Below, piece after piece: positions 56,601-59,600 of a stretch of DNA of 64,000 bases (its first letter is position 1; every line of letters begins with the position of its first letter). The DNA is taken from NCBI RefSeq assembly GCF_048403405.1, contig NZ_CP183129.1. One strand, 5' to 3'. The position numbers are program-made. The stretch comes from Escherichia coli (GTDB lineage: Bacteria > Pseudomonadota > Gammaproteobacteria > Enterobacterales > Enterobacteriaceae).

Positions 56601-59600
56601 AACATTACGAATTATGTATACGGGTGAAGCACTGCCTAATGATTGTGAATCAATTTTTTGGCTAAATATACTGGATATTTCAGCTAAACCTAAATTTGAA
56701 AATAAAAATAATTTAAATGTAAACTCAAATTATCTTCAACTCCCAATCCATAGTCGCATAAAGCTATTCTATCGTCCAGAAAAACTCACACGTTCTCTCA
56801 GTGAGGCCTATAATTCTGTTATATGGCATATTGAAAAACAAGGAGCAAAGGCCTTTCTTTGTGCAGATAATCAAAGTCCTTATTTTATTACTTATAATCA
56901 TATTACTTTGATTCAGAGCAACTACTCACAATCAATTAATCCAGTAGATATGGTTGCTCCTTATTCTTCAATACGCCTTCCTATACATGGAAATATGTCG
57001 GGATATGGAAAAGTGAAGTGGACAGTTGTTAACGATTATGGTGGGCATGAATTAAGTGAGTCAGCTCTGAAATAAGGATAATATTTATGAAATATTGCAC
57101 TTAAACTGAACATCATTCATTCCTGCCTGCCATATTTATTTCACTGGGAGTTTTTTCCATGGACACAGTGGCTATGGAATATGCTGAATTTGATCCCAGT
57201 TTTTTACAGCATACTCAAGGGAAGACGACGTTAGATATTCATCGTTTCAATCAAGGAAATCCAACTCCAGCAGGAAAGTACTATGCTGATGTTTATCTTA
57301 ATAATAAATGGAAAGGGCTCTGCCTTAGTGTTTCTTACGCCATTTGTCACATTAACATTTTTGGTGTTTACACCTGAAACCTGGGTACATGGAGCAGATG
57401 CTCATACTGAGTTTCCTTATCTTTCCGGTGCGGGAAGGTTAGTTCTGAAAGATACTATGATGATAGCAGCAGGATTTGTTGCAATGGTACATTCTGCAAG
57501 GTGTATCACTAAAAAGTAGTGAACACTATCATTTATCTGATTTTTATTTTCTAGTATTATATGAGGTTATCGCGTCGTGGAGGGGAACTTTCCCCCTCCA
57601 CTCCCACGGAGCCGGACGTGGCAGTATCCCGTCATCTGGCTCTTGTAGTTGACTGGTAACATCGCGTACAAATAGTCCAGTGTGCAAACAAACTGAGTTT
57701 AACATTCCGGATCCTGTCTAATCATTCATACGCTTGAACCAGACTACCGTGTCCCCTCTTGTATTTACGGGTAACCCATTTAGCAAGGTACAGATCGATA
57801 TGTCTGGCTATATAATCCATTACTGATTGACAAAAGCGTCCATAGTACAATACCCACGTAGCCTGAGATTGAGCCAACGTACCATTGTATCCAGTGATAA
57901 CGGTGCTCTGTGGCTTCAATCCTAACCCCGCACTGTCTGACGGATTGCCTCGCAAAAATGGACAATGCCGCTGAGGAACTGGCGTATAGTAATAGAGTCG
58001 CTTTATTGTCGAGTTCGGTGACCGCGACCGCTAGGATGGTCACTTTTGAAAAAGGCGTTTACACAGCATGGTAAACGGACTCGAAATTCTCTTACATATA
58101 CTGAAAATTAATTACAGTAACCTATTCGTTATAACCTGTTTAAACCCACTCCAATTCGTTATTTATCTCACGTCTGATCATGAATATATAAAAATCGCGT
58201 ATGTACGGTATGTCCGGTTAAAGTATTCAATGAAAGTGTCCTGCGTCGGCTTACCTGGCTGGATAAGATCCCGTTTTACTGCATGTTTTTCTGCCCATTC
58301 AGCCAGTATCAGTGAGATAAATTCTGGACCATTATTCATGTGCAGCATGATCGGGTAGCCGCAGTTTGCCGCGATCCTGTCGAGTACACGGATCATTCGC
58401 AGATCTGGCAGATTCAGAATGATTTTAATCGACAATGTCTCACGGTTAAAGTCATCAACTTTAACAGTCCGCCCGGTTTCAACCGACTTAATTACGGCGA
58501 TGATCTGATGCTCAGTAAAACAGGCTTTACGCATAGCGATCTCCTTCGTTGGCAAATTAATTATGCGGGATACTTACACCGTCAACCCCAGTATGCAGAG
58601 GATGAAGCATCAGATCGGAGCATTGTCTGATGGTGCCATACACCAGATTTAACAATAACCCGTTTAATACGCCAAGCTGCAAAGAAGCAATTAAGTATTC
58701 TAAAACAGATAGTTAAAACTTAAACCTTATCTAGGACAGCCCAAATTTTTATTATTTTTTAAATAATCACTTGCTAATGATAATTATATATACATACAAT
58801 GTGATATGTTATAACATAACAAAAAATGGCGGATAGTATGAAAAAATCTATTTTTAATTATACAACATTTTTTATTTCAATGAGTTATTCCTTATTTGCA
58901 AATGCAAGCCCTGCAATAAAATCAACTGAAAATCGGAACAATGAGGTATTAGAGGTCTATTCAACACCTTTGCATACTCCGCAAGAGAAAATGGCGATCC
59001 CCGTTTCTGTTCTGACACAAGAAGATCTACGCGCTAATCGTAGTGCCTCGATTGCTGAAACCTTAACATCCTTACCAGGTTTTCATGCCAGCTTTTTTGG
59101 TGGAGGCTCAGTTCATCCAGTTATTCGAGGAATGTCAGGCAATCGAGTCAAGGTATTACACAGTGGTAGTGATCTTATGGACGTATCCTCTATTGGTGCA
59201 GATCATACAATCACCAGTGAACCCTTTTTAAGTCAACGCATTGAAGTATTAAAAGGCCCTTCAACATTACTTTATGGAGGAGGCACAATAGGCGGTGCAA
59301 TTAATGTTATTGATAGCAAGATTCCTATGTCAGTGCCTGAAAAAGGCTATGAGGGTGAATTGCATTATCAATACGATTCTGTTTCTAAAGGAAATACAGG
59401 ATCAGTAGGATTAACGTTAGGAGAAAATAATTTGGCGCTTCGCCTTGAGGGTACTAAACGTTATCAAAGTGATTACAAACAACCAGAACCTTTACATCAA
59501 GGAGAAACTAGCCGTTTAGCAGGATCTTATCAAGATAACCAATCGGCAAATATTGGTGTATCCTGGCTTTTTGATGACGGTTATATAGGGATTGGTTATG

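Follow-up and report, generated by a model that had tools for sequence, protein, structure and literature searches.

A damaged group II intron tail in the degenerate region of ICEPm1 in Escherichia coli

Class D of the bacterial group II introns, as listed by Toro & Martinez-Abarca, includes E.c.I9, RmInt1, E.c.I2 and a 412-aa RT-X protein of Ralstonia solanacearum (PMC3552965). RmInt1 moves by reverse splicing, for which single-stranded DNA at replication forks serves as the target and the second strand is not cleaved. Fragments of group II introns are frequent in Enterobacteriales, accounting for 55 of 135 distinct copies in the survey of Leclercq & Cordaux (2012, PMC3522654), which also describes fragments that reside on large mobile elements and were “acquired already inactivated”. 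The element ICEPm1, for its part, has been reported in Escherichia, Klebsiella, Providencia and Morganella, and a portion of it has been termed the “degenerate region” (PMC11278526).

In the present work a 64-kb stretch of Escherichia coli DNA, hereafter referred to as the window, was analysed. Its segment 57569-57950 (minus strand) can be regarded with very high confidence as a dead relic of a mobile group II intron of which the 3' end is left; it most likely has no function any more and travels as a passenger of ICEPm1. When the minus strand of 57540-58010 was compared with plasmid sequences by blastn, identities of 82-85% over ~390 nt were obtained, with E values down to 5e-121; the matching loci comprised Serratia fragments annotated as “group II intron maturase-specific domain” and the full-length ltrA intron of Enterobacter bugandensis pEC105227L. 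Over 57565-57950 the identity amounts to 84.9% with the copy on a Serratia entomophila plasmid and to 81.6% with the full-length E. bugandensis intron (blastn). Other related copies are found in Serratia marcescens, S. symbiotica, Yokenella and Arsenophonus, those of Ralstonia being more distant.

The E. bugandensis copy is an intact element of 1864 nt (1520-3383 of its locus), which matches the ribozyme models RF01999 (group-II-D1D4-2) with 114.3 bits and RF00029 with 58.1 bits. It encodes a protein of 412 aa with the Pfam domains RVT_1 (68-288) and GIIM (315-380) and with no endonuclease domain, and the best PDB relatives of this protein are group II intron RTs. Yet only 57557-57948 of the window is matched by this full-length relative, corresponding approximately to RT residues 315-411 (blastn and tblastn). 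Searches of the whole 64-kb window with the full-length relative (blastn with word size 7, tblastn) revealed nothing above chance that could represent the RT domain or any other missing portion of the intron, and no match to ribozyme domains I-IV was obtained in the window either by Rfam or by blastn with the same relative. Hence, nothing is left of domains I-IV, of the 5' part of domain IV or of the RT domain, and the element is a fragment rather than an intron, its surviving tail consisting of the last ~380 bases.

The boundaries of the intron, GUGUG...GAU, were deduced from multi-copy alignments, and since these alignments fix the GAU end, the 3' end of the intron in the window is placed at 57569. 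The likeness to the relatives ends a few bases past the junction GAT/AACCYC. No intron-free version of the DUF417/3'-exon flank was matched in plasmids. The features recognised in and around the relic are listed in Table 1.

Table 1. Intron relic, its lesions and the adjoining sequences, in positions of the window.
Feature	Position	Strand	Evidence or remark
Flank 3' of the intron (former 3' exon)	57520..57568	-	starts AACCTC, related copies AACCCC; multi-copy alignments
Domain VI and terminal GAU	57569..57605	-	RF00029 alignment, fold, pair counts on 11 homologues
Domain V, 34 nt	57609..57642	-	RF00029 alignment, homologue pair counts
IEP pseudogene remnant, residues ~315-412 of 413	57656..57948	-	tblastn, codon alignment to E. 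bugandensis ltrA, Pfam GIIM
Lesion, native stop TAA to TAC	57658-57656	-	codon-by-codon alignment
Lesion, W391 to TGA	57724-57722	-	codon-by-codon alignment
Lesion, 4-nt deletion, frameshift	57857/57856	-	codon-by-codon alignment
Lesion, L325 to TGA	57918-57916	-	codon-by-codon alignment
Lesion, W323 to TAG	57924-57922	-	codon-by-codon alignment
IS256-family (IS1414-like) fragment	57946..58091 (end approximate)	+	blastn to annotated IS256-family transposase loci; translations
AT-rich DNA, ~90 bp	58092..58180	.	assigned to no element; no similarity beyond ICEPm1 copies
IS3-family remnant	58181..58578	-	blastn to intact L004 element, Pfam, NCBIfam

The covariance-model search for group II domains V and VI, which had been proposed when the sequence alone was read, gave one meaningful match. 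In a permissive Rfam scan of 56500-59500, RF00029 (domains V-VI) was aligned end to end, over all 77 model positions, to 57569-57644 of the minus strand with 31.3 bits (E = 0.0014), below its gathering cut-off of 40 bits; the only other match with E <= 1 in the same segment was a chance snoRNA. Scanning of the whole window at Rfam gathering thresholds led to the calling of no intron family. As the Pfam GIIM match to the remnant of the intron-encoded protein likewise falls short of its cut-off (21.7 bits, E = 2e-4, against 23 bits), the identification rests on homology to intact copies and not on curated thresholds.

The perfect hairpin that the sequence-only reading had pointed out near 57578-57605 is present, with exact arms at 57578-57585 (tggagggg) and 57593-57600 (cccctcca) of the plus-strand segment 57577-57601, gtggaggggaactttccccctccac. 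As minus-strand RNA it comprises 11 pairs closed by a 3-nt loop. The 91 nt of 57560-57650 fold with -41.4 kcal/mol (z = -4.66; one of 200 shuffles folds as well) into two adjacent helices, which are domains V and VI. Both domains could also be aligned in seven further relatives. The structure of both domains was written out and its pairs were then counted on 11 homologues, the window included: 98% of the cells proved to be paired and seven pairs showed changes on both sides. None of 500 shuffles matched the observed values, and slid registers were paired to 30-48% only. The hairpin 57577-57601, which lies within the domain VI portion of the RF00029 alignment, is the distal stem of domain VI together with its loop, and the 11-bp stem is supported by covariation across the 11 sequences.

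Three of the six unpaired cells in this count are contributed by the window itself, namely two A.C mispairs in domain V and one G.G mispair in the basal helix of domain VI (GGG/CGC). Domain V is recognisable but damaged: the AGC triad and the AC bulge are kept, whereas the loop reads GAUA, which is non-GNRA, instead of the GAGA present in ten of ten relatives. A presumptive branch-point A lies unpaired at 57575, the seventh nucleotide from the 3' GAU end. In comparison with the relatives, two pairs of the distal stem of domain VI have been replaced with full compensation, one C-G by U-A and another C-G by G-C, and one G-U has become G-C. These compensated changes indicate that the parent belonged to a separate, once constrained lineage, distinct from the sampled plasmid-borne copies, and the hairpin owes its perfection to its past as a functional RNA helix, not to any present role.

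A perfect GC-rich stem situated in an intergenic position between convergent remnants might also be taken for a functional element in its own right, for example an intrinsic terminator, a REP-like repeat or a protein-binding site, whose place beside the debris is accidental. This is highly improbable. The existence of the hairpin is already explained by its positional homology to the domain VI stem in ten related introns, a stem in which compensatory changes are seen; moreover, the exact sequence has no second copy in the window and the 25-mer is confined to copies of ICEPm1. As for a terminator, the hairpin was not called in the terminator scan, and neither strand shows a T/U run behind it.

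Upstream of the two RNA domains, the minus-strand frames of 57656-57948 correspond to residues 315-411 of a 413-aa RT/maturase with ~70% identity (tblastn, E = 1.2e-32), which bears out the earlier impression of short ORFs with RT C-terminal-like patterns. What survives of the protein is ~98 codons, encoding the maturase/X domain (GIIM) and the C-terminal extension that ends in ...LFAHW; the six-frame translation of the minus strand shows here ...WVLYYGRFCQSVMDYIARHIDLYLAKWVTRKYKRGHGSLVQAYE, a stop and LDRIRNVKLSLFAHW... In total, the coding remnant has acquired three premature stops and one 4-nt frameshift deletion, and its own stop codon is lost. The RT palm and finger motifs are absent from the window, an outcome which the sequence-only reading had counted against itself. 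It is literally so that the ORFs lack RT motifs, only the X domain being left; nevertheless, the intron reading is not refuted by this, because truncation has removed the RT domain, and RVT_1 occupies residues 68-288 of the intact relative, outside the surviving portion (~315-412).

The decayed end of either a group II intron or a retron-type element had been envisaged at this place, and it is the former that agrees with the RF00029 alignment and with the similarity to intact introns. Retron RTs are distant kin of group II intron RTs, and the PDB matches of the intact relative do include retron RTs, at weak E values of ~1e-4. A retron remnant would consist of an msr/msd RNA and the gene of an RT without a maturase domain, with the hairpin forming part of the msd stem. 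However, what survives of the protein is GIIM, a maturase domain specific to group II introns, the RNA is alignable with domains V-VI, the intact homologues match both the D1-D4 and the DV-DVI ribozyme models, and the covariance-model search for retron RNA remained without a match (Rfam, 56500-59500, E <= 1). A retron origin thus deserves hardly any credence, and the segment is best read as the tail of a group II intron.

On the other side of the intron tail, an intervening IS256-family piece on the plus strand, overlooked in the sequence-only reading, lies between the tail and the IS3 remnant. It comprises the last ~35 transposase codons and the 3' end of the element, ~145 bp in all. Its conceptual translation, ...ASQKWTMPLRNWR…SRFIVEFGDR…DGHF, is frameshifted and resembles the homologue found in locus L004, the upstream part of which is matched by Pfam Transposase_mut (PF00872). 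Pfam gave no match to the 47-aa conceptual remnant itself, and the assignment to the IS256 family rests on 77-80% DNA identity to elements annotated as IS1414. The homology to the intron stops at 57947-57950 and the match to IS256 starts at 57946, the overlap being at most 5 bp. Since this junction joins two internal positions, it points to a deletion or illegitimate recombination and not to an insertion.

The IS3-family remnant, in turn, shares 86-90% identity with the intact IS3-family element in L004 (blastn). As the sequence-only reading had noticed, it is a fused OrfA/OrfB remnant: an internal deletion of ~601 bp, with its junction at 58456-58459, has joined the OrfA start and the 5' end of the element to the middle of the OrfB DDE/rve core, and ~200 bp of the 3' end are missing as well. 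The programmed-frameshift region of the element lies within the deletion. Protein profiles recognise the resulting ORF, 58178-58555 (minus strand), as Pfam rve (2.4e-9) and NCBIfam transpos_IS3 (4.4e-13), with a weak N-terminal HTH_Tnp_1; the transpos_IS3 match reaches 49 bits, the cut-off being 160, and covers profile positions 239-326 of 369, in addition to which there is the ~25-aa OrfA start. PGAP labels 58185-58460 as a partial DDE transposase pseudogene. Upstream of the S. entomophila intron fragment, too, an IS3 transposase is located, but the idea of a shared IS3-intron junction had to be discarded: the two loci have different break points and their IS3 elements show no similarity at the DNA level, so that the resemblance is a coincidence or an independent event.

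Taken in order, the following history would account for this arrangement. A full-length intron copy may once have resided here, with its 3' splice junction GAU/AACCTC at 57569/57568. It would have belonged to an Enterobacterales lineage of ~1.86-kb introns that encode an RT and maturase protein without an endonuclease. A rearrangement would then have eliminated the 5' ~1.48 kb, with domains I-IV as well as the RT domain, and fused what was left to the interior of an IS1414-like element; ~90 bp beyond lies the IS3-family element with its internal deletion. The remnant presumably drifted afterwards. To judge from the sequence, nothing in this segment is likely to work at present, given that the ribozyme core is lacking, domain V is damaged and the protein is interrupted by stops and a frameshift.

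Although the distal stem of domain VI is intact and split group II introns occur in organelles, there is next to no likelihood that the fragment is one half of a working, trans-splicing intron or a small RNA exapted from domains V and VI, as no 5' half exists in the window, domain V is impaired by two mispairs and no longer possesses a GNRA loop, no exon coding sequence runs across the junction, and no convincing minus-strand promoter is found, promoter-like sites being no commoner than in shuffles. Slightly less remote, but still very improbable, is the idea that the DV-DVI remnant, or the domain VI stem alone, is kept for a role in ICEPm1, for instance by providing a stable RNA end, a processing signal or a small antisense RNA to transcripts that traverse the degenerate region towards the fimbrial and DUF417 remnants, or that it marks an unsampled active lineage of Morganellaceae introns with a UA/GC-substituted domain VI.

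The reading of the segment as a dead intron tail agrees with the surroundings in which it is found. The segment 57300-58800 is present in 13 of 5426 complete E. coli genomes at no less than 99.3% identity. Among ~100,000 species-representative genomes the exact 25-nt hairpin occurs in two, Proteus mirabilis ATCC 29906 and Providencia stuartii NCTC11800, each of which is 99.7-99.9% identical to the window over 4.8-7 kb around the hairpin. Both matches are the ICEPm1 mosaic, and none of these genomes offers a full-length parent with the exact domain VI hairpin. The gene order of the region is fimbrial subunit, chaperone, N-terminal fragment of the usher, DUF417 fragment, IS3 fragment and two TonB-dependent receptors, and it is identical in the “degenerate region” of ICEPm1 from P. 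mirabilis HI4320 (Flannery et al. 2009, cited in PMC11278526). Related ICEs of E. coli have only the replication module in common with the window, up to about position 54340. The mosaic therefore belongs to ICEPm1 as a fixed passenger. That its copies in different genera are nearly identical is best ascribed to the recent spread of the ICE and not to selection on the relic; as the whole ICE is equally identical, the conservation between hosts is uninformative with regard to selection. It is presumably carried along passively in the degenerate accessory region, and it spreads with the ICE between Proteus, Providencia and E. coli.

In the existing annotation, 57520-58185 is left blank by PGAP, and the tables of ICEPm1 genes (PMC11278526) are either blank at this place or give a 198-nt hypothetical ORF, so that the intron remnant and the IS256 piece are named in neither. 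The present assignment fills this gap of ~660 bp in a conjugative element that is clinically widespread. To a region whose degeneration had already been described are added one IS256-family fragment and one group II intron fragment that had escaped counting, which in itself matters little. On a small scale, the locus illustrates how dead pieces of introns can pass from genus to genus as passengers of an ICE. The survey of Enterobacteriales (PMC3522654) gives zero copies for its one Proteus genome, and the fragment apparently went uncounted there.

When the locus is set beside the described systems, its closest kin are the introns on Enterobacterales plasmids (E. bugandensis pEC105227L ltrA, WP_309258541.1; S. 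marcescens pAM01; S. symbiotica; Yokenella; Arsenophonus), with which the last ~390 nt share 74-85% nucleotide identity. Domains V and VI correspond, the 3' end is likewise GAU, and the 3' exon opens with AACCYC in both. Those introns are 1.83-1.86 kb long and possess D1-D4 and an intact RT/maturase of 412-420 aa, whereas in the window no more than the final ~380 nt remain, with stops, a frameshift and a damaged domain V, and the domain VI stem differs from theirs in two compensated pairs. The parent lineage probably belongs to bacterial class D (the RmInt1 and E.c.I9 kind), as suggested by protein comparisons: the Enterobacter protein shares 50% identity with that of E.c.I9 over 405 residues, through the LFAHW end, and scores 414 bits against E.c.I9 in contrast to 167 bits against the GsI-IIC RT (PDB). 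Comparison of the fragment with E.c.I9 and Sh.dy.I1 revealed no similarity at the DNA level. The class D (IIB3) introns RmInt1 of Sinorhizobium meliloti and E.c.I9 and E.c.I2 of E. coli encode RT-X proteins of ~405-419 aa without D/En and are ~1.83-1.91 kb in length (Table S1 of PMC3552965), and the intact relatives are alike in these respects. If the assignment is correct, the parent would have moved in the manner of RmInt1; unlike the class D introns, the piece in the window is incapable of acting as a retroelement.

The neighbouring mobile elements are related to IS1414 of the IS256 family and to an IS3-family element of the WP_097484527.1 type, and the window carries fragments of both. As regards the mode of decay, fragmentation of group II introns typically entails the loss of the 3' terminus (PMC4496777), whereas the fragment described here has lost its 5' part and kept the 3' terminus. 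Its situation is that of the E.c.I4 fragments (PMC3522654), which are likewise inactivated, have no full-length counterpart in the same genome and reside on a large mobile element. In this company, the tail is ordinary genomic debris of an already known kind, located in the known degenerate region of a known ICE.

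The ICE part of the window, from 54702 to 64000, belongs to ICEPm1, with an identity of 99.7-99.9% both to P. mirabilis ATCC 29906 and to P. stuartii NCTC11800; the ICEPm1 portion probably starts already at about position 37800. The occurrence of this element in Escherichia has been reported before (PMC11278526); among 5426 complete E. coli genomes, 13 were found to carry the stretch. Related E. coli ICEs, with an identity of ~92%, share with it the replication module only, up to about position 54340. The segment 55867-57519 represents a decayed fimbrial operon, in which the usher fragment passes directly into what is left of a DUF417 (RclC-like) gene, a C-terminal piece with its end at 57519. 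The components of this remnant and its flank are listed below, together with the structured RNAs of the window, all of which are gathering-level Rfam matches.

Features of the fimbrial remnant and its flank, and structured RNAs detected in the window
Feature	Position	Strand	Remarks
Ornithine decarboxylase N-terminus, truncated, and speFL leader	about 54339-55042	-	just upstream of the fimbrial remnant
Fimbrial subunit	55867-56277		
Fimbrial chaperone	~56506-57075		annotated
Usher	57159-57377		cut after ~70 residues
STnc490	4722-4844	+	Rfam, 65.5 bits
ALIL pseudoknot	5342-5458	+	Rfam, 121 bits; IS3 frameshift element
AS-pc02 antisense RNA	6508-6686	-	Rfam, 58.6 bits
STAXI RNA	51772-51932	+	Rfam, 121 bits; inside the ICE replication module

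At the 5' end of the IS3-family remnant, 19 nt (58560-58578) match exactly positions 2524-2542 of L004, the locus with an intact IS3-family element, and since this match lies ~25 nt out of register with the main alignment, a small deletion or repeat is suggested. The first of the two TonB-dependent receptors (58826-60919, + strand) contains a striking histidine-rich insert (...HTHFHDHEDDHHHHAPIRPPLIGHHHHNHNHEYPDEQHQHG...), which might be metal-binding. A weak Fur-box-like site (58773-58791; 13 of 19 matches to GATAATGATAATCATTATC) overlaps a promoter-like site 5' of the receptor gene; the window holds 21 sites of this kind, and a much stronger one, with 16/19 matches, is located at 4614-4632.

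Full-length copies of the intron lineage in Enterobacterales occupy a conserved target, about TTCCGGCGTAG^AACCCC (positions 1506-1519 and 3384-3389 of L002, the Enterobacter bugandensis plasmid locus; likewise L006-L010), which suggests a specific putative homing site on plasmids. A related full-length intron (72% identity) of E. coli KC-Dl-1 (L012; NZ_CP063046.1, 3149566-3152201), present in eight E. coli genomes, interrupts a yeeU-type antitoxin gene adjoining cbtA and is oriented antisense to it. Another 5'-truncated fragment of the lineage resides on the Serratia entomophila plasmid NZ_MT039158.1 (L003), directly 3' of an unrelated IS3-family transposase, its domain V carrying an internal 9-nt deletion; this fragment is a wreck like the intron remnant of the window, and represents an independent case.
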